Shown one piece after another: positions 25,431-64,000 of a stretch of DNA of 64,000 nt. This DNA comes from Candidatus Omnitrophota bacterium. GTDB taxonomy: Bacteria; Omnitrophota; Gorgyraeia; Gygaellales; Profunditerraquicolaceae. Positions within the stretch are counted from its first letter, which is position 1; the number at the start of each line of letters is the position of its first letter. Below the pieces are notes generated by a model, which saw only the letters and a program-made list of their open reading frames with translations, searched no databases and was not told the origin of the DNA. The stretch covers positions 10,104 to 74,103 of the forward strand of contig JAUSED010000010.1 of NCBI GenBank assembly GCA_030650425.1. Direction: 5' to 3'. Both the position numbers and the translations under genes were made by a program.

Positions 25431-26483
25431 TCAATCTTTACTTATATACAGCTTCTGCGTAGGATAGGCAAACTCTATGCCCCGTTTTTCAAACTCTTCC
25501 TTAATCGCGAAATTAATCTCCTGCTGGACATCCATATATTTGTTGTAATCGGGAGTTAAAACAAAATACACGACCTCAAAGATGAGGCTAAAATCCCCAT
25601 AACTAAAAAAGTGTGCGCGGTCAAAAGCCGTGTCTTTGGTATTCTTAACGACACGCTCGATGATCTTGGGAATTTCCTTTAATTGGCTAAGAGAAGTCTG
25701 ATAAGTAACGCCTATACGAAATAAAATACGCCTTTTCTCCATAAGCCTATAATTACGAACCCGGGAGTCTGTAAGGTCGGTGTTAGAGAATATTACCTGT
25801 TCGCCGCCCAAGCTGCGTATGCGCGTGGTTTTTATCCCTATATACTCAACGGTACCCATGAAATCACCGATGATTATAAAATCCCCTATTTTGAAGGGAT
25901 GGTCAAAGACTATAGAAAAATAGCTGAAGAAATCTTTCAGGAGCGCCTGCGCGGCTATTGCTACTGCAATACCGCCGATTCCTAATCCGGCAATTAACGT
26001 AGAGACTTTATAACCAAGGTTATCTAATAGAATTATAACCGCCAAGGCCCAAATCAAAAATTTAACGGCCCATAACATACCATCAAGGCTGCGCACCACC
26101 GTGGGATCCTGCTGCTTTTTGGTAAGATATGTATTAATCCCCCAACCGGCAAGCATAACCACTATGCGCGCGGCAAAAAAAGTGATAATAATCATCTCAA
26201 AAGTGTTGATCAAAGCGCCGGCTGCGGAAGGTAATTTTAATGTTTTGGCGCTCACATAAAAACAACTGATGTATAATGCCGGCAGGCCGATCTTTGACAG
26301 AATTGATACTAAAAAATTATCGAATCTTGTAGTAGTTCTTTCCGCTATTTTTTTAAGACGCCTTATAAAGAAGAGGATAACCACTTTAACAAACAACAGG
26401 GTTAAGAATAACGTTACTAAAGCGATAATATAATCCAAAATACGGTTGCCAAAAAATACCTGCTCTAAAATTTTTAGATCCAT
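25431..26483 (-). CDS. Mechanosensitive ion channel, MscS family
   Basis: Three N-terminal TM helices and an MscS beta domain (GTVEYIGIKTTRIRSLGGEQVIFSNTDL). Confidence 0.85.
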   Translation of the reverse strand: MDLKILEQVFFGNRILDYIIALVTLFLTLLFVKVVILFFIRRLKKIAERTTTRFDNFLVSILSKIGLPALYISCFYVSAKTLKLPSAAGALINTFEMIIITFFAARIVVMLAGWGINTYLTKKQQDPTVVRSLDGMLWAVKFLIWALAVIILLDNLGYKVSTLIAGLGIGGIAVAIAAQALLKDFFSYFSIVFDHPFKIGDFIIIGDFMGTVEYIGIKTTRIRSLGGEQVIFSNTDLTDSRVRNYRLMEKRRILFRIGVTYQTSLSQLKEIPKIIERVVKNTKDTAFDRAHFFSYGDFSLIFEVVYFVLTPDYNKYMDVQQEINFAIKEEFEKRGIEFAYPTQKLYISKD

Positions 26484-26497
26484 TTTAACTCCTCATA

Positions 26498-26580
26498 AAA
26501 AAGCCATCCCGCATTCTAATGCAAGATGGCGGCCCGACCATCGATAATCCTCCAGAGATATTTAAATATCTCTGAACCAC
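26498..26580 (-). promoter_or_regulatory. Candidate cis-regulatory structured RNA (riboswitch/attenuator-like) in the mscS leader
   Basis: Minus sense: hairpin CAGAGATATTTAAATATCTCTG; conserved hairpin GATGG-UCGGGCCG-CCAUC; alternative terminator GCCAUC...GAUGGC plus U6 directly before RBS GAGGAG. Paralogous copy at 29893-29970 with a compensatory hairpin. Confidence 0.5.
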
Positions 26581-27909: not shown

Positions 27910-28869
27910 TTATTTATCCAGCGACTTCAGATATTTATAATAATCGCTGTCGGTAGTCAGGATTACCGTTGAATTTGCGTCAATAGTGCCCCTATACGTT
28001 TCCAGCGTCTTAAGAAAAGAATAAAATTCGGGATTCTGCTCATAAGAGGTAGCGTAAATATTAATTGCTTCGGCGTCGGCTTTACCGACAATAGACTGCG
28101 CTTGCTTGTAAGCCTCTGAAGTTATTAACTTAAGTTCTTTACCGATCTGGCCCTCTATTTCGGCCGCTTTCCCAAACCCCTCCGAGCGGTATTTTTCAGC
28201 GGCGCGTTTTCTCTCCGCAATCATCCTGTCGTAAACTTTATTTCGGACCTCTTCCACATAATTTATGCGTTTGATACGCACATCCAGAATCTCAATCCCG
28301 TATTGGGGAGCAAGCACTTTTGCCTTTTCCAGTATAGAGCGAGTCAACTTCTGCCTTCCCATTTCTATACGTTCAAGCGCCTCTTCGCTGACTATGGCAT
28401 CTTCCCCTAAATCCTTACTCTCAAGTATGCGGTTAGAATCCCTTACCGCCTCAACCAGAAGATTACCGGTAACAGCATCCCTGGTAGCTGAATTAATAAT
28501 ATCGTTTAGCCTGCTGCTTGCGCTTGTTTCATTACCCACAGACTGTAGGAATTTCAAGGCATCCACTATTTTCCAGCGCGCCGTGGTATCTACCCAGATA
28601 TATTTCTTGTCTTTTGTGGGTATTTGGTTCGGATCGCCGTCCCATTCCAAGAGCCTCTTCTCAAAATAATGCGCCTCTTGTATCAAGGGAATTTTAAAAT
28701 GCAAGCCAGCGGAAGTTATGGGTTCTCCGACTGGTTTACCGAACTGGGTAATCACTACTTGTTTTGTTTCATCAACTATAAATAACGCCCCGCTGGCAAA
28801 GGCAAGCAAAACAATTACAGCCGGGAAAATAATTAACCCCAAAATAGTCCCTAATCTGCCCTCTTTCAT
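27910..28869 (-). CDS. hflC: Protease modulator HflC (SPFH/band 7)
   Basis: N-terminal TM, then FIVDETKQVVITQFGKPVGE. Overlaps the hflK stop. Confidence 0.85.
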   Translation of the reverse strand: MKEGRLGTILGLIIFPAVIVLLAFASGALFIVDETKQVVITQFGKPVGEPITSAGLHFKIPLIQEAHYFEKRLLEWDGDPNQIPTKDKKYIWVDTTARWKIVDALKFLQSVGNETSASSRLNDIINSATRDAVTGNLLVEAVRDSNRILESKDLGEDAIVSEEALERIEMGRQKLTRSILEKAKVLAPQYGIEILDVRIKRINYVEEVRNKVYDRMIAERKRAAEKYRSEGFGKAAEIEGQIGKELKLITSEAYKQAQSIVGKADAEAINIYATSYEQNPEFYSFLKTLETYRGTIDANSTVILTTDSDYYKYLKSLDK

Positions 28870-29861
28870 TGCTGCGGCCCTCCTTTCTTGCCTATATCCA
28901 ATAACGGCAATATGGAAGATTGCCTTGGGTCAATAATATATTTTTCTTTCACCTTGGGCAAGACCTCGGCAAGGGCTTCAAGATAGAGCCTCTTACGGGT
29001 AATCTCCGGGGCTTTCTTATATTCTCCCAGGGTCACTAAAAACCTTTCCGACTCGCCCTTGGCCCTGTTTATCTTATCCAGGGAATATCCCTCTGCTTCG
29101 CGGATAGTCCGCTCCGCTTCTCCTTTGGCCTTTGGTATGGCCTTATTATATGCCTCCCAGGCCTGATTGATCATCTTCTCTTTTTCCTGTTTTGCCTCAT
29201 TAACTTCGTTAAAAGCCGGCTTTACCTTATCCGGAGGATTTACATCCAGCAGTTTCACCGTAATGACCTGCACGCCGGTCTGATAATCATCTAGAATCCT
29301 CTGCATTTCAACTTGAGCTAAGTGGTCTACTTCTTCCCTTTTAATAGTCAACACCTCATCCACGGTGTAATCTCCCACCAGCCGGCGCATGACTATTTCA
29401 GAGACATCCCTTATAACATTAACCGGGTTACGCACGACAAAAAGGAGCTTAATGGGGTCTTTTATTTTAAATTGCACAATCCAGCGAACGTCGAGTATGT
29501 TTAAATCTCCGGTAAGCATTAACGACTGTTCTAAATTCGAGCCGTAAGAACGCGTACTCACTAAACCCGAGCTCCCTCCCCCAAACTCTTCCTTGAATAT
29601 TTTTTCTACTTTTATCGGCGTTACCTTATCAATGCCAAAGGGAATCTTAACGTGCAAGCCGGGTGAACTTAATTCTGTATATTTACCGAACCTCTGCATG
29701 ACCCCTACTTCATCCGGGCCTATTGAATAGATTACCCCTCTTAGACCTATAATAATAAGCAGGCCAAATATTATCCAGGGGATATACTTGCCATAATCGG
29801 ATAATTTCTTTTTGCCTACATCGATTATATCGTCCGGGCTAGGAACATTTTGCCAGTCCAT
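28866..29861 (-). CDS. hflK: Protease modulator HflK (SPFH/band 7)
   Basis: GPDEVGVMQRFGKYTE...VKLLDVNPPDKVKPAFNEVNEAKQEKEKMINQA. Confidence 0.85.
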   Translation of the reverse strand: MDWQNVPSPDDIIDVGKKKLSDYGKYIPWIIFGLLIIIGLRGVIYSIGPDEVGVMQRFGKYTELSSPGLHVKIPFGIDKVTPIKVEKIFKEEFGGGSSGLVSTRSYGSNLEQSLMLTGDLNILDVRWIVQFKIKDPIKLLFVVRNPVNVIRDVSEIVMRRLVGDYTVDEVLTIKREEVDHLAQVEMQRILDDYQTGVQVITVKLLDVNPPDKVKPAFNEVNEAKQEKEKMINQAWEAYNKAIPKAKGEAERTIREAEGYSLDKINRAKGESERFLVTLGEYKKAPEITRKRLYLEALAEVLPKVKEKYIIDPRQSSILPLLDIGKKGGPQQ

Positions 29862-29892: not shown

Positions 29893-29970
29893 AAAAAAAC
29901 AAAACCACCAACTGCAATTTCGCAGATGGCGGCCCGACCATCTAAACCTTCAGGAAATCTTCCTGAACCC
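29893..29970 (-). promoter_or_regulatory. Second copy of the candidate cis-regulatory RNA, in the hflK leader
   Basis: Same GATGGTCGGGCCGCCATC hairpin. The variable hairpin TTCAGGAAATCTTCCTGAA has different sequence but keeps pairing. The alternative terminator CCAtCTGC...GCAGtTGG plus a U-rich run precedes RBS AAGGAG. Confidence 0.5.
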
Positions 29971-30472: not shown

Positions 30473-31525
30473 TTAATAAACCGGAACAGCTACACTCCAG
30501 GACCCGTCAAGTTGCTTGTGAGAAACATATATTTGGTAATCTTTCCTTCCCTGAGGAAGGAGCTCAAAATATAATTCTTTTTCGTCTCTTGTCAAGCTTG
30601 GAGCAAATATCTTATGGGTAGCAATACCTAAATCTAATTTTATCGGCTCTGCCCATATTCCATTGACTTTTTCCGAGAAATAGATTCCCGTTTTCTTAAG
30701 ATTTATGGGCTGAGGATATGCTCTCACAAAGTATATTCGTTGCTTATCAGGGCTTAGCCATCCTGGCGCTTCAAAAGCATCTTCAGTATTTATCGGCTTG
30801 CCTATATTTATTGGCTCGCTCCATTCTCCATTTTCAAAGTTACTGATAAAGATATCGCCAAAACCTAAAGTGCCCGGCCTGTCAGAGCGAAATATCAACG
30901 TCTTTCCGTCTTCTGTTACATGAAAATCCTGCTCCATATGGGGAGTATTAAAATAATCAGACAGAATGAAAGGTCCTTTCCATGTCCCGTCTGCTTGTTT
31001 GTAGAAGGTAACAAGATCTCCTTCGCCTTTAATTTCCCTGCCATCTATAGAAATACCAGATGCTTCGACAATCAGTCTAGTCCCATTGTCAACTGTCATA
31101 AATTTAGCGTAAATTCCTTTATCTCTTGGTATCAATTCATGCGGCGCAAGTGTTGGGTTTGTCCATTTTCCATTCACTTTTTCGGAGCAATACCCTCTAA
31201 ACCAAATATTTTTATTGGAAATATCGTTTTCAGTGTGGCCTTTTCTATAAGGCCCGATTATTTTAATGCCTTTCTCCTTTTTTAATATTTTCATCTTCTC
31301 TTCGGGGGAAAGCTCCTGGAACCATTCAAAATCCATAGGAGAATACAAGAAACACAACTTGTTTCCGTCAAGTGAAATTATTGGTTGATCTTCGGTCCCC
31401 AACGTATTGATTGCAATTACATTCTCTTCACTAAATGCCTGCTTAAAATCCACAACTAATGCGATACTTATTGCCATCAAAACTGTCAATAAGCCAAAGG
31501 AAATTGATATGTGAGTATTTTTCAT
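30473..31525 (-). CDS. Secreted beta-propeller (PD40/TolB-like repeat) protein
   Basis: Signal/TM at the N-terminus. Repeated W/G-containing blades. No catalytic motif recognised. Confidence 0.45.
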   Translation of the reverse strand: MKNTHISISFGLLTVLMAISIALVVDFKQAFSEENVIAINTLGTEDQPIISLDGNKLCFLYSPMDFEWFQELSPEEKMKILKKEKGIKIIGPYRKGHTENDISNKNIWFRGYCSEKVNGKWTNPTLAPHELIPRDKGIYAKFMTVDNGTRLIVEASGISIDGREIKGEGDLVTFYKQADGTWKGPFILSDYFNTPHMEQDFHVTEDGKTLIFRSDRPGTLGFGDIFISNFENGEWSEPINIGKPINTEDAFEAPGWLSPDKQRIYFVRAYPQPINLKKTGIYFSEKVNGIWAEPIKLDLGIATHKIFAPSLTRDEKELYFELLPQGRKDYQIYVSHKQLDGSWSVAVPVY

Positions 31526-31679
31526 CTTATTTTCTGGACTAAGTATTGTGTCACTGGAATTTTGGAATTCTGGAATTCGTAATATATCAAGGTATCCATT
31601 TAGGAAACGCTCCCTTTTCTAATTCTTAATTATACAGTCTAAGGCCGATTAGCTCAACAAAAAAGACGCGGAGTATCGG

Positions 31680-32213
31680 TCAATCTCTGTGGAATCCAAT
31701 TGGAGGCTTCTGCGGCAAAAGAGGCGCGGGTGCCGGCTCAAGCAGCTTTTTAATCGCTTCGAAAATAAGCTGGATCTTATCATCATGTGTAGCGTATTTC
31801 TTCTCGAGCGCGGCGATCTTTTCCGCCAAGTCCTTGTGAGTCAAAAGGAACTCTTTTAATTTCACGAAGGCGCGCATAATCATAATATTAACCTGGATAG
31901 CGCGCTCGCTGTTCAGAACGCTAGAGAGCATAGCCACTCCCTGCTCGGTAAAGACATAAGGAAGTTGATGGGAAAAACGCAGCCCGCTTAGGTGGTCACA
32001 AATTGTGACCAGCTCCTCTTTTTCCTCTTTCCTGAGCTGAAACATGAAATCCGATGGAAATCGTTTTATATTTCTCTTTACTGCTTGATTCAACCGCTTA
32101 GTAGCAACACCATATAACTTAGCCAAATCAATATCTATCATTACCTTCTTACCTCTGAGATCTAATATTCTTGCGGCTATTAGCTCAACCGATATAATCA
32201 TAGACATACCCAC
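31680..32213 (-). CDS. ORF6N (KilA-N-like) domain protein
   Basis: LRGKKVMIDIDLAKLYGVATKRLNQAVKRNIKRFPSDFMFQLRKEE is the canonical ORF6N N-terminal region. Confidence 0.65.
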   Translation of the reverse strand: MGMSMIISVELIAARILDLRGKKVMIDIDLAKLYGVATKRLNQAVKRNIKRFPSDFMFQLRKEEKEELVTICDHLSGLRFSHQLPYVFTEQGVAMLSSVLNSERAIQVNIMIMRAFVKLKEFLLTHKDLAEKIAALEKKYATHDDKIQLIFEAIKKLLEPAPAPLLPQKPPIGFHRD

Positions 32214-32514
32214 CTCCTTCTCTGATTAGCTTGAAGTAGCAATCTACGGCTTCAAGTTGCTAATCCCTTGTACCACAAATAGTTCTCTACTTGATGCCAT
32301 AATTTGTGACCTCAAGTTTGTAATCTATTGATGTGTCTCCTTTCTACTCTAATAGACGCTCGAAAGGGCGGAATCTAACGTATTTTTTCGACAAAAAAGA
32401 CGCTGGAGTTTCCCAGCGCCTTGCGAAAAATATAACCGTCCCCTTTTATTTACGCATATAAATATTATACTATAGGGACAAAACCAAAACCCCAAGCCTT
32501 TTTAGGGTTAGGTT

Positions 32515-32904
32515 TTATTTTGAGTGGACATGGAAGCCAACTACCCTTGTTTGCTTAGGCGGTTCAAGCAGCCTTTTAATCGCTTCAAACACTACAGCGA
32601 ATTGACCGTCATATTTATTTTCCATATCTTCAATTTTACGCTTTAATACAGCATAGGTCAACCCTATCCTTCGTAAAGCTACAAAAGCCCTCATTATCTG
32701 AATATTAACCTGTATTGCCTGTTTGCTATTTAGCACGCTCGAAAGCATTGCTACGCCCTCCTGCGTAAAAGCAAACACATTAGGCGCATGTTTAATCTTG
32801 GAACTTATCACAATTTGTGATAAGTTCATGATCTCCCTCCTAGTAAGTGAAAACATAAAATCTTCTGGAAAACGGTCGATATTTCTTCTAACCGCCTGGT
32901 TCAC
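32515..32904 (-). CDS. N-terminally truncated ORF6N-domain paralog (GTG start directly after a TATAAT box)
   Basis: Begins within the ORF6N core (NQAVRRNIDRFPEDFMFSLTRRE). C-terminal half aligns with 31680..32213. Confidence 0.5.
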   Translation of the reverse strand: MNQAVRRNIDRFPEDFMFSLTRREIMNLSQIVISSKIKHAPNVFAFTQEGVAMLSSVLNSKQAIQVNIQIMRAFVALRRIGLTYAVLKRKIEDMENKYDGQFAVVFEAIKRLLEPPKQTRVVGFHVHSK

Positions 32905-32959
32905 AGTTTACACAACCTATTATACTACAACTGATTCCTAAGGGAATTTGTTTCGCAAT

Positions 32960-33000
32960 CTTCTCAACTACGAGTAGTTAGATACAACGTTACGGTTTCT
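32960..33000 (-). repeat. Conserved post-stop motif, copy 2, abutting the stop of 33000..34208
   Basis: ttaagaaaccgtaacgttgtatctaactactcgtagttgagaag (minus sense). Confidence 0.6.
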
Positions 33001-56759: not shown

Positions 56760-57014
56760 CTAATATCTGAAATGCACAAATATCCTGCCGAAATTTTTAT
56801 CGTCTTTTTCAATGCGGCGGTAAAGCCTTTTTATCTGCGGCTGTTCCAAGAAACGCAATACACTCTTCTTCAGCTGTCCGCTCCCCTTGCCCGGAATGAT
56901 TTCCACCAGCTCTATCTTTTTACTTACCGCCTCCTGAATTACACGATTGAGTTCCACTTCAATTGCCCGGCCATTGCTGAAGATATCATGTAAGTCTAAT
57001 TTAATTTTAGCCAT
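56760..57014 (-). CDS. Smr-domain protein
   Basis: MAKIKLDLHDI...IEVELNRVIQEAVSKKIELVEIIPGKGSGQLKKSVLRFL (LDLHG/IIHGKG-type Smr motifs). Confidence 0.65.
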   Translation of the reverse strand: MAKIKLDLHDIFSNGRAIEVELNRVIQEAVSKKIELVEIIPGKGSGQLKKSVLRFLEQPQIKRLYRRIEKDDKNFGRIFVHFRY

Positions 57015-57189
57015 AAAGTTATTATAACTCCCTAAACCAAAAATCCCAAGCCATTTTAAAGGCTCGCTTAATTCAGCAGGGCCTGCCACGGCGCCACCTT
57101 ACTTGTTCTCGCCTATTCGGCTCGAAAAGTAAGGGATCCGTCACCGTGTCACCCGCGCGAAGCTCCCTCCGCTCGCCTCTCCCTGCGCT

Positions 57190-57235
57190 ATCCGCCAAAA
57201 ATCCCAAGCTTTTTTCGAGCTTGGGATTAATTAAC
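57190..57235 (-). terminator. Hairpin AATCCCAAGCT-cgaaaaa-AGCTTGGGATT plus TTTT, downstream of 57314..57712
   Basis: Perfect 11-bp stem. Adjacent GGGGGACACAATAGTTAATTA motif. Confidence 0.55.
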
Positions 57236-57247
57236 TATTGTGTCCCC

Positions 57248-57295
57248 CGGAACTACGCCCGGAACTACCCGGAACTATTCCCCGGAACTATTCTA
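57248..57295. repeat. Short tandem repeat (CCGGAACTA-like unit, ~4 copies)
   Basis: cccggaactacgcccggaactacccggaactattccccggaactattc. Confidence 0.6.
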
Positions 57296-57313
57296 ATTTT
57301 CTCTAATTTTATA

Positions 57314-57712
57314 TTATTCATTTTCACACCTCTCCATCATCTTATTATCAATCAATATGTTGGCAATCTTTTCTTTGGAGATTTGATATTTATTGCTAAC
57401 TGTTTCTATAGCCGTTTGAATATTCATAATCTGCAACTTTGTTGTGGCTGTTTGTTCTTTATCAACGTTCTTTGAAATATTCGTCTTCGCTTTTGTTAAA
57501 CTAAAGCCCTTAGTTAATTCTTCATAGTCACTAATAACTCCCACTAAGGTATTACTGTCAACACCATATTTAATAGCCAATAATTCCGTGTCCTCATTAA
57601 GCATATTCTCTATCTCAAGATTTTCTTCTACTGCTCCTGTCTGAGTCTGAACTGATTTTTGCTCACACCCAATAACAAACAAACATAATAATAAAACTAA
57701 CAGTTTTTTCAT
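57314..57712 (-). CDS. Hypothetical lipoprotein
   Basis: MKKLLVLLLCLFVIGCEQ has a signal peptide with lipobox. Confidence 0.5.
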   Translation of the reverse strand: MKKLLVLLLCLFVIGCEQKSVQTQTGAVEENLEIENMLNEDTELLAIKYGVDSNTLVGVISDYEELTKGFSLTKAKTNISKNVDKEQTATTKLQIMNIQTAIETVSNKYQISKEKIANILIDNKMMERCENE

Positions 57713-57896
57713 TTATCCCCCTACTTTAATATTATTGGATTCTGTAAACGCAACACTCAATTGTATCTAACGAAGAATTAAATTCTGCGTCTCCAGGACT
57801 TACTTGATTTCTCAAGCCCTTTTCAAGCTTGGGAATAATTAATTACTGTGCCCCCGAAATTACCGACTTCTTATTTATTTACAGGCTTTCTACTTT

Positions 57897-58250
57897 TTAG
57901 TATGCGCTCCCACTGTTTCTGTTATGATCTCTTATTTCTTCTAGATTTCTAGCTTCTTCTTCCTTTGTTTCTGTTCTAATATAAACTCCAAACTTTATGC
58001 GACTAACAGTAGAGTTCTTTATTTCTTTAGCGATATCTCCTCCTGCTTCTGCGAATTGCAGTACTCGAATACCCGCTTTTCCCGACTTCGTATCAATATC
58101 TTCAACCGTAACTGCTATATCAAACTCTACTGTTTTGTTTTCTTTATCATAAAGTTTCATGTCGCGCACAGAATTATTACGCGCATCTTCTACTCCTTGG
58201 ACTAAATCGGTTAAGACTTTTTTTACAAACTCCTTTAGTTCCATATTCAC
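57897..58250 (-). CDS. Hypothetical small soluble protein
   Basis: 117 aa. No family recognised. Confidence 0.35.
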   Translation of the reverse strand: MNMELKEFVKKVLTDLVQGVEDARNNSVRDMKLYDKENKTVEFDIAVTVEDIDTKSGKAGIRVLQFAEAGGDIAKEIKNSTVSRIKFGVYIRTETKEEEARNLEEIRDHNRNSGSAY

Positions 58251-58283
58251 TCCTTCTATTTTTCAAAAATCAGAACCCCCATT

Positions 58284-58664
58284 TTATTTTGAATTAGGAA
58301 AATATTCTTTATGTTTCCTACCTATTACATTAATAATCTTGTTGTTTATTGGGTCATCTATGTCTTTTAAACCATTTACTCCTCTCCAAGAGTAAACTTT
58401 CCCTGTTGCAGTATCAAAAATATCATAATTAGGATATTCATAATTAACCATAACATATCGACCTATTGACGGCTTAATAAGACTACCAATCAATACAAGA
58501 AACCCACTAATTAAACCAATGATAGCAACTCTTACAGGTAATGAAATCGATAACCATATATCCTTAGCCTTTTTTATACTATTTCCTTTCAGTACAAGAC
58601 TACCCCAAACAAACAATAAGGACGGTTCTATCTTTCTAGAAACCTTCCCTCGAATTGCGACCAT
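58284..58664 (-). CDS. Hypothetical two-TM membrane protein
   Basis: TM segments LLFVWGSLVL and VRVAIIGLISGFLVLIGSLI. Confidence 0.35.
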   Translation of the reverse strand: MVAIRGKVSRKIEPSLLFVWGSLVLKGNSIKKAKDIWLSISLPVRVAIIGLISGFLVLIGSLIKPSIGRYVMVNYEYPNYDIFDTATGKVYSWRGVNGLKDIDDPINNKIINVIGRKHKEYFPNSK

Positions 58665-58805
58665 GGCGCAACAATAACCTGATTATTGACTATATTTTAC
58701 CCCTCCCAATATGCTTGTCAATCCAAAATTCCCAAATACTTGCAAGCCTGGAATTCTAAAGGTATTCCTTTAGGGACGTTTCTAGTCTTCTCCAACCCTA
58801 ATAAA

Positions 58806-59210
58806 TTATTTCTGAGCCTGCGGTCCCAATAATTTAATCTTCAAATTGTGACTCTGCTTTAACTCCCCGTTTACTCTAACTTCAATACTATAATCACCGG
58901 CTAAGTCGAATTTCAAATTAACCAATTGAATAGGCAAAGGAATGTACTGCTCCTCTGCGTGATCCTTCGACACATCGAGGTCGGCTTCCGCTTTAAATAT
59001 CGTGCCTTTCTCACCAATTAATCGAATATCAACCCTATTTTTACCTATATCTTGCCTTGTTACCTTTAATCTTACTAGTATAAATATTAAAGGGTGAACA
59101 CAAGGTAATTTACGCGCCGTAATTTCTGCAATACCCGCACCTACTAACGTAAATTTACCACCTTCATTCGCTGCTGCATAATCAGCTAAAATTAAATCAG
59201 TTACTTCCAT
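58806..59210 (-). CDS. Hypothetical protein, 134 aa
   Basis: No family recognised. Sits in an island with the TA and excisionase-like genes. Confidence 0.35.
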   Translation of the reverse strand: MEVTDLILADYAAANEGGKFTLVGAGIAEITARKLPCVHPLIFILVRLKVTRQDIGKNRVDIRLIGEKGTIFKAEADLDVSKDHAEEQYIPLPIQLVNLKFDLAGDYSIEVRVNGELKQSHNLKIKLLGPQAQK

Positions 59211-59267
59211 TCTGCTACCTCCTCTTTATTTATAGTTGCTATATCGCAACTATTTACACAAAAAAAA

Positions 59268-59546
59268 TCACCTAATTTGTAGATAACGGACTAACTCTTC
59301 TCGCGATATAGTATATTGCTCACCCAACATTTTTGCACTCAACCTCCTTTCGCTGATCATTTTCCTTACTGCTTGTTGAGTTATGCCTGCCTCCTTAGCA
59401 AACTGAGTGACGGATAAAAAACTAGGCATATCACCTAGCTTAATTTCTAAGCGTAATAACGGTCGTAACCCTTCACTATGGCTTCCAAGCCGTATAACAG
59501 AAAAAGGTTCGTTTGCTGTAGCTTTAAAGTTCTTAATTTCAACCAT
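59268..59546 (-). CDS. Excisionase/MerR-like HTH DNA-binding protein
   Basis: Start taken at MVEIKNF. C-terminal LSVTQFAKEAGITQQAVRKMISERRLSAKMLGEQYTISREEL is an HTH_17-like helix-turn-helix. Upstream promoter TTGCTA-n17-TATGCT. Confidence 0.55.
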   Translation of the reverse strand: MVEIKNFKATANEPFSVIRLGSHSEGLRPLLRLEIKLGDMPSFLSVTQFAKEAGITQQAVRKMISERRLSAKMLGEQYTISREELVRYLQIR

Positions 59547-59599
59547 AGAAAAAGCATAACATATAAGTTGCGATTTAGCAACAAATATTTTTATCAAAT

Positions 59600-59900
59600 G
59601 CCTTGCGATTTTTTGACTAATATTTATTAGCGGGTGGCGAGGCCCGCTTTGAGCAGGGCGTAACGCAGGCGGAGCGGGCAAGGATCGTCTGCTATCTAAT
59701 ACTAGTGAGAGCGGAGCCGAGTAGCCGAGCGTGACTTTTCACGCCGGGAAAAATCGCGCGTCCCTGCGAGAAGTGGGCCTCGACAGGCCCCGCTAACCGG
59801 CTATGAGCGAGAAAATTGACAGAAAATCCGTTGCTGGCCCCGCTGATTAGAGCGAGCAACTCGGCAACAAAAAAGGCGCTGATTTCTCCAGCGCCTTTCC
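59600..59900. other. GC-rich structured island (candidate ncRNA or integration-site remnant) within AT-rich DNA
   Basis: Several GC hairpins: GCGGG-tggcgag-GCCCGC, GGGGCCTGTCGAGGCCC, CCGGCGTGAAAAGTCACGCTCGG. The only ORF (59692..59937) looks non-coding. Confidence 0.4.
59866..59893 (-). terminator. Terminator GGCGCTGGAGAAATCAGCGCC plus TTTTTTGTT (minus sense)
   Basis: Perfect 8-bp GC-rich stem followed by a T6 run on the minus strand. Confidence 0.65.
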
Positions 59901-60027
59901 TCGTAGCATAAATGTTCCTTTCCGACATTTTAAGCATATCTTACTATAATCTCTCTGTCAAGAAAAACGAGGTGACACTCCAAGAAGTGTGGCGGGACAA
60001 CCTACAGGCAGGGACTCCGAGGTGGCG

Positions 60028-60276
60028 CTAAATTTTGCTTACTTTCAATAAAGTAAGCCTTTTTCGTTTCTTTAGCTTTTTGTGAAGAGCAATTATATCG
60101 TTCTGGACTAATTGGGCATTCGCCATTCTTACATTTGGCGGCAAATTTGGATTACCCTCGTAAATTGCTTTAATGTCGTGCAACTGCCTTGACCGAAGCC
60201 ATAACGGATCAATTGGCTGCTGTTTAATCCGTTTCAACAGTTTCTGAAACTTTTTATTCATCTTACGCCTCTGCAA
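60028..60276 (-). CDS. Hypothetical basic small protein
   Basis: 82 aa, K/R-rich. Overlaps the brnA stop by 14 nt. Confidence 0.35.
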   Translation of the reverse strand: MQRRKMNKKFQKLLKRIKQQPIDPLWLRSRQLHDIKAIYEGNPNLPPNVRMANAQLVQNDIIALHKKLKKRKRLTLLKVSKI

Positions 60277-61848: not shown

Positions 61849-61850
61849 AA

Positions 61851-61964
61851 GGAGCACCGACCTACTCTCACATATCCTTACGAATACACTACCATCGGCC
61901 CTGAGGGGCTTAACTTCCGTATTCGGAATGGGAACGGGTGTTTCCCCCTCGGTAAAGGCACTCC
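61851..61964 (-). rRNA. rrf: 5S ribosomal RNA
   Basis: Minus sense: ...CCCGTTCCCATTCCGAATACGGAAGTTAAGCCCCTCAGGGCCGATGGTAGTG...GAGAGTAGGTCGGTGCTCC matches 5S helix IV/V consensus. Confidence 0.85.
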
Positions 61965-62474
61965 AAAATTTTTGTGCAACAAAAATTTTGGTACTTGGCG
62001 ATACCAAAAATCTTTTACCTAGGTTTGAGCCAAGTACCTCCATCACAAATAACCTCAACAACCACATAACCTCGTATGGTAAAAACTACTCTCAATAAAC
62101 CTTTGAGAATTGATTTTCCTCCACCTCCAGCTCTTTTGCAAGAAGGAGGCTCGGGATAATCTTCTTCGCTTTGCAGCGAAAAAAATTAAAGGCCAAGCCA
62201 ATCGGCTGATTAGTACGCATTAGCTCAAATCCTTACGGACCTTACACATTGCGCCTATCGAGGTCGTAGTCTACGACCAGCCTAATGGGGATACTTATTC
62301 TTGAGGGGGGCTTAGCACTTAGATGCTTTCAGCGCTTATCCCTTCCGAACATAGCTACCCGGCCTTTGCCCTTGGCAGGACAACCGGAACACCAGAGGTT
62401 CGTTTCTCTAGGTCCTCTCGTACTGAAGAGAACTCCTCTTCAAGTATCCTACGCCCACATCAGATAGAGACCGA

Positions 62475-63214
62475 CAATTTTTGTTACATTCGCAAAATTA
62501 TTGCGAAGGATCAATCATTTCTGCTGATCTCTGCATATCGCTATGCAGTTCGGACTGTATCATATCCGCCTGTCATGCGGATTCTGGCGTACAGTCTCTG
62601 AAGATTCCAAGTGAGAAATTATATCTTCCAGTTTTTGCTTGCGATATTTACCGCTAAAATTCATTGAATAAGCGATTGTTAATATCGTAATCAACCCATT
62701 CTTTTTTAAATGCCCTCCTTCTTTCATTAAACTAACGACTCGAGCAAATTTCTCAAAATCCTTTTGTTTGATTGAAATAAGAGGAGATTTTTTGAAGAAT
62801 GGTATGACTTTATTACGGAGATCATCGATATTTCGCACCACATAAACTGAAGTTTGATCCTTTAGATTTTGATAATCATTAGGTTTAATATACCCACAAC
62901 CTAATTTTTTCTTAATCACTTCAAGGACTTCAGTCCTGTCCTGGTGCTGTGAAACATGAAATTCCGGGATTACCTGAATCCCTAGTTTCACATTGCCGCT
63001 TTTTTGAATTGTTACTGAAAAGCAGCCTTCTCCATCAACAAAACCTGAGATATATGATGTTATCCCACCTGGCCTTTCCTGCTGATTGTCTGCACCCATA
63101 TATTTTCACTCCCGACGATATATTATCATATAGAGACTAAATCGTCAAGTAGTAATATGGGATTCTCAGAGTTTCCAGCAATTAGCCAGATTTAAAGACA
63201 GCAACGGTCATTTT
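62475..63214 (-). mobile_element. Group I-type intron in 23S at the I-CreI homing site (E. coli ~2593; GTGAGACAGT^TCGGTC)
   Basis: Exon sequence is contiguous with the E. coli 23S consensus once 62475-63214 is removed. Contains a LAGLIDADG ORF. Confidence 0.7.
62560..63099 (-). CDS. LAGLIDADG homing endonuclease (I-CreI-like), intron-encoded
   Basis: GFVDGEGCF motif. 179 aa. Confidence 0.8.
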   Translation of the reverse strand: MGADNQQERPGGITSYISGFVDGEGCFSVTIQKSGNVKLGIQVIPEFHVSQHQDRTEVLEVIKKKLGCGYIKPNDYQNLKDQTSVYVVRNIDDLRNKVIPFFKKSPLISIKQKDFEKFARVVSLMKEGGHLKKNGLITILTIAYSMNFSGKYRKQKLEDIISHLESSETVRQNPHDRRI

Positions 63215-63250
<36 letters not shown>

Positions 63251-63285
63251 CTTTTAACTGGCGAACAGCCAGACCCTTGGGACCT

Positions 63286-64000
63286 GCTTCAGCCCCAGGA
63301 TAGGATGAGCCGACATCGTACCTTTATCCATAATTACGTATGGTGTAGACTATATCTTTTCCCTACTGTCGGACTTTAGGCTTTCAGCCATATCCTTTAC
63401 TTTTTGATGTAGGGTTCGGCGTGTTATCTAGCTTCTTTTACAAAAGCTAAATCTCCTCTTTCGAGTCAGTCGTTACGGGGTCATAGTCAATTTTATAACG
63501 GAAACATGGCAACAGATGAGGCGCGACTATATTTCGAAATAGTCCTGCGCTTTCCGTTCGTATTCGAATTCTAAAGTATTGTTTATCGCGATTGAGACTG
63601 GACTTAATACCTAAATCTCGATCTAAAATATTCATCAATATCTTCTGGCTTACCAGATCAAACTGCTGAGTATTTAAATAAAATGTATTGCGACTCTTCG
63701 AACCGTCATCCATAAACCAAACAGAAAGCATCAAATTGGTTAGGATGAGATCGGTCGAAACTGCCTTTTTGCCGCTCGAATAATATTTTAAATAATATTC
63801 TGTAAAAAGCGGAAGGCTTTGAGTCGTAAAACGATAAGCAATACGATTGCCATTGCCATGGCGAGATTTTGGCGGAGTTTTGACAAACTCTTCGAAATTT
63901 TTCCACTTCCAATCAACATATTCTCGATATTGGAACGAGTGGTTAACCTCAAGAAGCGCGTTAGTTCTGGTGCCCTGCTTTCGCAATGCGCCATCACCAA
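63286..64000 (-). mobile_element. Second intron in 23S (near E. coli ~2500 region), continues beyond the window
   Basis: The exon resumes at ...TACGATGTCGGCTCATC (63271-63285). Upstream sequence does not match the 23S consensus and encodes a LAGLIDADG_2 ORF. 5' boundary not in window. Confidence 0.55.
63447..63986 (-). CDS. LAGLIDADG_2-family homing endonuclease, intron-encoded
   Basis: LMLSVWFMDDGS motif (WFMDDG signature of the LAGLIDADG_2 family). 179 aa. Confidence 0.7.
   Translation of the reverse strand: MRKQGTRTNALLEVNHSFQYREYVDWKWKNFEEFVKTPPKSRHGNGNRIAYRFTTQSLPLFTEYYLKYYSSGKKAVSTDLILTNLMLSVWFMDDGSKSRNTFYLNTQQFDLVSQKILMNILDRDLGIKSSLNRDKQYFRIRIRTESAGLFRNIVAPHLLPCFRYKIDYDPVTTDSKEEI

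Follow-up and report, generated by a model that had tools for sequence, protein, structure and literature searches.

The locus

The window, by which we mean the whole 64-kb stretch of Candidatus Omnitrophota DNA analysed here, contains a GC-rich intergenic island beside the gene for an excisionase-type DNA-binding protein. A preliminary description had singled out this island as a structured element accompanied by a minus-sense promoter, hairpin and terminator. The features considered below are the following; other neighbours in the window include BrnT/BrnA-like genes and small ORFs.

57058-57192, minus strand: second hairpin-repeat copy (right-end type), in inverted orientation to the first copy (model R1 152 bits, model R2 18 bits; homolog in L002)
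57062-59857, no strand: candidate 2.8-kb block bounded by inverted outer repeats and containing HTH_17, DUF6941 and ORFs of 126, 117 and 132 aa
57246-57290, minus strand: four tandem TAGTTCCGGG units, spaced 10-13 nt, just inside the right-end copy
58806-59210, minus strand: gene for a DUF6941 protein, the conserved partner of HTH_17, predicted to be an all-beta sandwich
59268-59546, minus strand: gene for an HTH_17/excisionase-family DNA-binding protein, the first gene inside the block, with its own conserved promoter
59627-59796, plus strand: island core, a full hairpin-repeat copy of 170 nt (model R2 161 bits; identified by its folds, by covariation and by homologs in the corresponding position of L020 and L021)
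59828-59857, plus strand: probable outer remnant copy and terminal inverted repeat, CCGTTGCTGGCCCCGCTGATTAGAGCGAGC, matching the outer end of the second island (57062-57091, minus)
59869-59898, minus strand: intrinsic-terminator hairpin AAAGGCGCTG-GAGAAAT-CAGCGCCTTT plus T run, homologous to terminators upstream of ORF6N genes
59910-59961, minus strand: mini unit of the preliminary description, comprising promoter-like TTGACA-17-TATGCT (59961-59933) and a small hairpin (59930-59910); not conserved in homologous loci

As described previously, the island is GC-rich: over the 150 nt at 59630-59779 the GC content is 63.3%, against a window mean of 42%. This is the second highest 150-nt stretch in the window, and only one other intergenic stretch in the whole window, at 57.1 kb, is as GC-rich.

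The core is closed by an 8-bp foot (UUAGCGGG/CCCGCUAA, with 59627-59634 paired to 59789-59796), above which come a conserved asymmetric bulge (UG opposite GACAGG) and a long stem of ~24 bp (about 59636-59660 with 59760-59785). The interior is branched and includes small hairpins, such as GCGUGA-CUUU-UCACGC at 59729-59744. The GC stems noticed earlier are present and belong to a fold that is better than those of shuffled sequences. For the plus strand of the core, the predicted RNA fold reaches -84.0 kcal/mol (z -4.3 vs shuffles) and the DNA fold -47.4 (z -4.9), as compared to -69.7 (z -3.05) and -37.6 (z -2.8), respectively, for the minus strand. In the three syntenic copies described below, moreover, G.U pairs outnumber A.C pairs by 17 to 6, indicating that the folding strand is the plus strand of the window. 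The minus sense initially assigned to the GC-rich part is thus the wrong strand, because the structured element is more stable on the plus strand both as RNA and as DNA.

The only ORF of the island (59692-59937, minus) had been judged to lack coding features, and it has no Pfam match, crosses the terminator and has no equivalent conserved in the homologous loci. Neither a tRNA nor a tmRNA is predicted by ARAGORN, in line with the reported lack of a tRNA-like arm.

Upstream of the HTH_17 gene, a promoter (TTGCYA-17-TATNNT) is overlapped by the palindrome GTTGC-N6-GCAAC (59567-59582), both being conserved in L020-L024. The palindrome is probably an autoregulatory operator of the gene. Such palindromes flank the HTH_17 gene (59235-59250 and 59567-59582), and a half-site repeat, TTGCGATTT, is found nearby (59603-59617).

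HTH_17 is followed by DUF6941 wherever downstream DNA is visible. The structure of the DUF6941 protein, predicted with high confidence (pLDDT 91.6), is an all-beta sandwich with only weak matches to lipid-binding sandwiches (UNC119/PDE-delta-like), and would therefore not represent a nuclease or recombinase fold; on the same prediction we rejected a hidden transposase. Our search of the literature on DUF6941 and on Omnitrophota non-coding RNA yielded nothing useful.

The minus-sense unit in the flank

The preliminary description merged two separate things, the GC-rich core and a minus-sense promoter-hairpin-terminator unit lying beside it. Both hairpins claimed for the latter are present, namely the small hairpin AAATGTCGGAAAGGAACATTT at 59910-59930 and the terminator, whose stem GGCGCTG-7-CAGCGCC (59875-59895) extends to 10 bp (59872-59898) and is accompanied by T6 at 59869-59874. 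The promoter-like TTGACA-17-TATGCT exists as well, with a 10/12 match and a good terminator 35-65 nt downstream. However, it is located at 59961-59933 rather than at 59975-60003, and promoter-like sites in the region are no more frequent than expected by chance (4 found vs 3.1 ± 1.8 in shuffles). An Rfam search in E-value mode gave a generic STnc250-like match over the promoter-to-terminator unit, at 27 bits (E 0.004), the gathering score being 42.

Only the terminator of this unit aligns convincingly with homologous loci: a homolog occurs in L020 (9115-9143), and blastn gives an 88% match over 33 nt within the window itself (32391-32422). The unit as such is not conserved at the L020 and L021 loci, contrary to the idea that it belongs to a conserved element. 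We regard it as a separate and weakly supported feature of the flank.

Some further features of these regions are worth recording. Two tandem ORF6N (antirepressor-like) genes occupy 31680-32904 (minus), with an island-type terminator homolog upstream of one of them. On the plus strand, the 59912-60058 segment comprises a 39-aa ORF (MFLSDILSISYYNLSVKKNEVTLQEVWRDNLQAGTPRWR) and then a terminator (60037-60058) that overlaps the 3' end of a minus-strand 82-aa gene; a promoter-like CCGACA-17-TATAAT (59922-59950) lies inside the 39-aa ORF. Direct repeats CGAGGTGACACT and CGAGGTGGCGCT are found at 59968 and 60018.

Homologous copies in other Omnitrophota genomes

A degenerate 25-mer based on both window islands, searched against one genome per species, retrieved one true homolog, L002, from a Candidatus Omnitrophota MAG. 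A match inside a histidine-kinase gene (L004) was attributed to chance, and another in a GC-rich actinomycete (L003) was set aside as a likely chance match, judging by the host alone. L002 and the 57-kb island have conserved 5' and 3' blocks, while the central hairpin differs in sequence with pairing kept. Two of the six HTH_17 protein homologs (L020 and L021, in two other Candidatus Omnitrophota assemblies) are accompanied by a GC-rich island in the same position and orientation as in the window; L020 and L002 come from the same MAG. The HTH proteins of the three island-bearing genomes are 59-63% identical.

The covariance model R2, built from 4 copies, also matched copies on which it had not been trained: L020 9154-9231, a 78-nt hairpin-only mini copy (56.7 bits, E 3e-12), the L002 copy (22.7 bits) and 57069-57163 in the window (18.3 bits). 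In total there are at least 8 copies on 4 contigs, measuring 70 to about 260 nt, found in both orientations and located between small accessory genes. The family foot is YTAGNGGG paired with CCCNGCTAR, and the bulge is UG opposite GRCAGG; the interior varies in length from 1 nt (the L020 mini copy) to >150 nt.

Four copies occur within 4.2 kb of L020, in the order terminator, mini copy, ORF6N, copy, HTH_17, DUF6941, copy, DUF3467, 316-aa ORF and inverted copy; three successive copies have the same orientation and the last is inverted. An ORF6N gene precedes the hairpin copy in both L020 and L021, and one L020 copy begins 5 nt past the stop codon of ORF6N. Among the L020 copies, two have ~90% of their interior in common, and their stem arms are different yet complementary. 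Both outer ends of the L020 block contain ...CCCGCTAARCAGTTCT.

Within or next to the copies there is a recurrent GAAAATTTTCG(C/T)C module (L002 1102-1210, L020 10913-11041, L021 285-305 and about 59805-59825 in the window), which suggests that smaller units make up the repeats as a mosaic. Downstream of another DUF6941 block, L025 (1925-2000) harbours a different GC-rich element, made up of a perfect hairpin CCCCTGCGGCGGCTG...CAGCCGCCGCAGGGG and then CCACATTCAGCG twice.

Conservation of the fold

Structure prediction and comparison across related genomes, one of the checks proposed for the island at the outset, point to a segment whose structure is conserved through compensatory changes. The statistics are optimistic, because only 4 contigs carry copies and these are related by descent: when the three syntenic copies are aligned with MAFFT, pairing holds in 90.3% of cells (79.8 ± 2.1 in shuffles) and 16 pairs change on both sides, as opposed to 7.1 ± 2.0 in shuffles (0/500 reach 16) and to a maximum of 3 with slid partners. 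In the three copies, pairing reaches 97% in the ~24-bp stem, which includes 9 compensatory pairs. Aligning six copies to the model gives 92.4% paired cells and 20 double-changed pairs (35 cells) vs 9.9 ± 1.9, although this alignment leans towards structure because it was fitted to it.

The family strand was more stable than its complement in 9/10 comparisons, the exception being the mini copy. The foot of one L020 copy has two unpaired positions. Between copies, the sequence of the stem varies and its pairing is kept.

Inverted copies and block boundaries

The second window copy lies 43 nt upstream of an Smr gene. The tail of the first island and the second island have in common a 30-nt motif on opposite strands, with a local alignment score of 33 (shuffles, 17.8 ± 2.5; maximum, 28). 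In its position, the 59828-59857 remnant corresponds to the mini copy that precedes ORF6N in L020 (9154-9231). The island tail (59798-59857) is most plausibly what remains of an outer copy after the ORF6N gene was lost.

In both L020 and the window the outermost copies are inverted, with their 5' ends facing inward and their 3' ends outward, and the blocks span 2.8-4.2 kb. Judging from sequence, then, accessory-gene blocks starting with an excisionase-type HTH and DUF6941 are bounded by inverted outermost copies in two genomes. The 57062-59857 segment is a candidate block, proposed from its inverted ends and from the parallel layout of L020 9154-13379.

We found no direct repeats flanking the block or single copies, and no target-site duplication could be defined. 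A 14-nt repeat around the second island, CTTGGGATTTTTGG, is a member of a common terminator family, CCCAAGC-loop-GCTTGGGATTTTTGG, that is conserved and recurs many times in Omnitrophota loci (57199-57228 and 57037-57052 in the window; several sites in L006-L019). In L006, L008 and L009 a different insert, of 57 nt, is found inside the loop of a CCCAAGC terminator upstream of the Smr gene. The tandem TAGTTCCGGG units look like iterons or protein-binding sites; a single TTAGTTCCGG is located upstream of the L002 copy (L002 1253-1262).

The copies are variably present. Four related Smr loci are devoid of the second island, their site holding only a member of the CCCAAGC-loop-GCTTGGGATTTTTGG family, which implies that the 57-kb island is a lineage-specific insertion and not an Smr leader. 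The Smr protein itself has >100 matches at 82-98% identity, and the named ones are from Candidatus Omnitrophota or Omnitrophica. The first island is missing from six other HTH_17/DUF6941 loci. At 32 kb, the window ORF6N locus possesses the terminator homolog and no hairpin copy, and is an empty site for the L020 mini copy. When R1 and R2 were run over the 64-kb window and about 170-200 kb of further Omnitrophota DNA, no copy was detected beyond the 3-4 kb blocks.

Searches for known RNAs, mobile elements and enzymes

An Rfam scan of the whole window at the gathering threshold returned nothing in the island. In E-value mode (59400-60200, 56900-57400, 31500-33000, L002, L020 and L021) nothing relevant to the hairpin repeat emerged either.

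Elsewhere in the window, two nhaA-I riboswitch matches (26524-26579 and 29924-29970, minus; 47 bits each, above the Rfam gathering score) lie upstream of an SPFH/Band 7 ORF (28866-29861) and a mechanosensitive-channel ORF (25431-26483). A 5S rRNA gene is found at 61849-61965. The 3' part of a 23S rRNA gene (62199-63986, minus) is interrupted by a 752-nt insert with a LAGLIDADG-type ORF (62560-63099), and a second ORF upstream (63447-63986) is LAGLIDADG-like by eye; these interruptions are probably group I introns with homing endonucleases.

No match to the island was obtained by blastn against plasmid and phage collections. A metagenome scan with the pattern CCCTGC..AAGNGNGCC..GACAGNCCCCGC gave 0 matches, and one with the 25-mer gave a single chance match in GC-rich DNA. 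Three viral scans produced either nothing or chance matches in GC-rich phage coding sequence.

The nearby reverse transcriptase or integrase that had been suggested as worth looking for was not detected: a Pfam scan of 40 window ORFs revealed no reverse transcriptase, integrase or transposase. Likewise, no recombinase, transposase or reverse transcriptase was found within 10 kb on either side in L020 or in the gene tables of the other loci, and no RAYT gene in the window or in the related loci examined.

These results bear on the identities originally put forward for the island. Retron msr-msd and 6S RNA resemble the repeat in having a closing inverted repeat around a structured interior of 150-200 nt. 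However, a retron is at odds with the lack of a reverse transcriptase among the 40 ORFs and, at E <= 10 over 59400-60200, of any covariance-model (msr) match. 6S RNA is encoded by one conserved housekeeping gene, whereas the Omnitrophota repeat is multi-copy (at least 2 in the window, 4 in L020), is absent from syntenic sites in relatives and has no 6S match on either strand. For a known defence RNA, PADLOC returned only a weak HTH match. The suggestion of an att-like or mobile remnant, or of an acquired fragment, comes closer to the evidence, in that a boundary repeat copy with presence/absence differences was found.

Other candidates were also discarded. As a riboswitch or 5'-leader, the element would fit two copies that lie 22-43 nt before start codons, but the genes downstream of these are not related to each other, no copy accompanies the relatives of the Smr gene, and the copies linked to HTH genes point away from genes. 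Group II intron remnants, IscB/TnpB guide RNAs, ssoA origins and parvovirus-like terminal hairpins, also considered, had no Rfam support and no matching enzyme nearby.

A hairpin repeat possibly recognised by an enzyme

The reading that we favour, with moderate confidence, is that the island consists of one full copy (59627-59796, plus) and an outer remnant (59828-59857) of a family of hairpin repeats that act in cis and are recognised by an enzyme. In general terms, a mobile or recombination site is a likelier identity for the island than an independent RNA gene. The copies would act as folded single strands, most likely of DNA, and an enzyme encoded elsewhere might recognise them by their shape, foot and bulge, much as IntI recognises attC, RAYT the REP/REPIN sequences and transposases the ends of MITEs. 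Through such recognition the copies, or the block that they bound, could undergo insertion, loss or rearrangement. The enzyme itself is hypothetical, since neither the window nor the 10 kb around the L020 block encodes a recombinase, transposase or reverse transcriptase.

Some observations weigh against such a mobile repeat. The copies cluster in 3-4 kb blocks, unlike dispersed REP or MITE families; the consistent folding strand and the G.U pairs would also fit an RNA; the mini copy is more stable on the other strand; and strict-pattern scans (one of genomes and two of metagenomes) uncovered only one further homolog.

Among known elements, those of the REP/REPIN/BIME type, associated with RAYTs (IS200-like tyrosine transposases), are similar in being GC-rich extragenic palindromes within a lower-GC genome. 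They begin with a conserved GTAG, to be compared with the 5' YTAG of the Omnitrophota repeat, their arms stay complementary, and their clusters alternate in orientation near terminators and gene ends. REP units, however, are 20-40 nt long and number tens to hundreds per genome, whereas the Omnitrophota copies are clustered within a single block of 3-4 kb.

MITEs and mobile insertion cassettes (Correia/CREE, ERIC, RUP; MIC231) are small, non-autonomous and endowed with terminal inverted repeats that can fold as hairpins. The Omnitrophota family has such repeats, in the form of complementary ends in each copy and 30-nt inverted block ends. It also shares with MITEs the presence/absence differences between genomes, the size variants and the nested copies, and with mobile insertion cassettes the inverted ends around passenger genes and the lack of a transposase. 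On the other hand, target-site duplications were not found, there is no known parent IS, and stems within one genome diverge strongly yet pair, something that plain transposase-binding repeats do not need.

Alternative explanations

The main rival, which we judge rather unlikely, is a stand-alone structured non-coding RNA on the plus strand, divergent from the HTH_17 gene and working with HTH_17/DUF6941, either as a regulator or as the third partner of a toxin-antitoxin-like or defence module. The strong fold, the compensatory changes and the consistent folding strand with its G.U pairs are all compatible with an RNA. Furthermore, the element is kept beside the HTH_17 promoter/operator in three genomes despite the limited identity of the HTH proteins, and on the folding strand it is followed downstream by a hairpin and, further on, by the plus-strand terminator. 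However, none of the three syntenic loci shows a conserved promoter before the folding strand, six other HTH_17/DUF6941 loci do without the element and no Rfam family matches it. An RNA gene of this kind is also hard to reconcile with copies of 70 to about 260 nt, one form hairpin-only, at unrelated sites and in both orientations.

It is unlikely that the copies are instead cis-acting mRNA structures, REP/BIME- or Correia-like, that stabilise 3' ends, stop read-through or insulate cassettes, and that perhaps spread as repeats and now act at the RNA level. Their placement at gene boundaries and beside terminators, the L020 copy just past the ORF6N stop codon and the good folding of both strands would suit such a role, but most copies fold better on the strand antisense to the co-oriented genes, the hairpins are not followed by a run of U on the sense strand, and true terminators already stand beside the copies.

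We consider it quite unlikely that the hairpins are recombination sites of an integron-like cassette system, in which a recombinase encoded elsewhere would read the folded single-stranded TTAGCGGG/CCCGCTAA foot and the GRCAGG bulge, shuffling small accessory or toxin-antitoxin-like cassettes. The resemblance to integron attC sites, including CALINs (attC clusters without an integrase), extends to an imperfect hairpin in which a short foot and some unpaired bases are conserved, a stem kept in shape and not in sequence, a terminal part of very variable length, strand-specific folding and a location between small, mostly co-oriented accessory genes that include toxin-antitoxin-like pairs. The foot, however, is TTAGCGGG/CCCGCTAA on either strand, as opposed to RYYYAAC/GTTRRRY in attC, and GTTAGCG, present in the window copy only, does not fit GTTRRRY. 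The Omnitrophota copies, of 70 to about 260 nt, are also longer, some genes have no copy after them, the last copy is inverted, and no IntI or other tyrosine recombinase is encoded by the 40 window ORFs or within 10 kb in L020. We thus file the family among hairpin repeat elements and as a member of neither attC nor REP, because, in the DNA examined, it has neither the foot and IntI of the former nor the copy number and dispersal of the latter.

Inert debris, that is decaying foreign GC-rich DNA or dead foldback elements now devoid of function, appears improbable. A GC content far above that of the host, a mosaic make-up with nested or partial copies and the unpaired positions in the L020 foot could be signs of decay, but the long stem is 92-97% paired though its sequence has been replaced between copies, and conservation of the foot and bulge extends to genomes with neighbouring HTH proteins of ~60% identity.

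Finally, the minus-sense small RNA unit of the preliminary description, followed by a retron-like, 6S-like or defence RNA, can draw on its promoter-like sequence, its terminator and the weak STnc250-like match and is nonetheless very improbable, because promoter-like sites occur at chance frequency, the unit is conserved in neither L020 nor L021 and has homologs of its terminator alone, no reverse transcriptase, 6S or msr match was found, and the GC-rich part is more stable on the other strand.

Significance

Omnitrophota are abundant, mostly uncultured and very small bacteria. To our knowledge, their mobile DNA has hardly been described. The long-hairpin repeats reported here make up a previously undescribed family, of which we found members in just a few genomes of Candidatus Omnitrophota.

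In AT-rich genomes, intergenic islands that are rich in GC and fold well are frequently interpreted as non-coding RNA genes or riboswitches, and the behaviour of the present island as a repeat element serves as a warning in this respect. Hairpins with a conserved structure at the edges of accessory blocks would provide a handle on the gain and loss of small genes in Omnitrophota genomes. If a matching enzyme were found, it might represent a new way of recognising folded DNA, comparable to that of the attC-integrase or REP-RAYT pairs.
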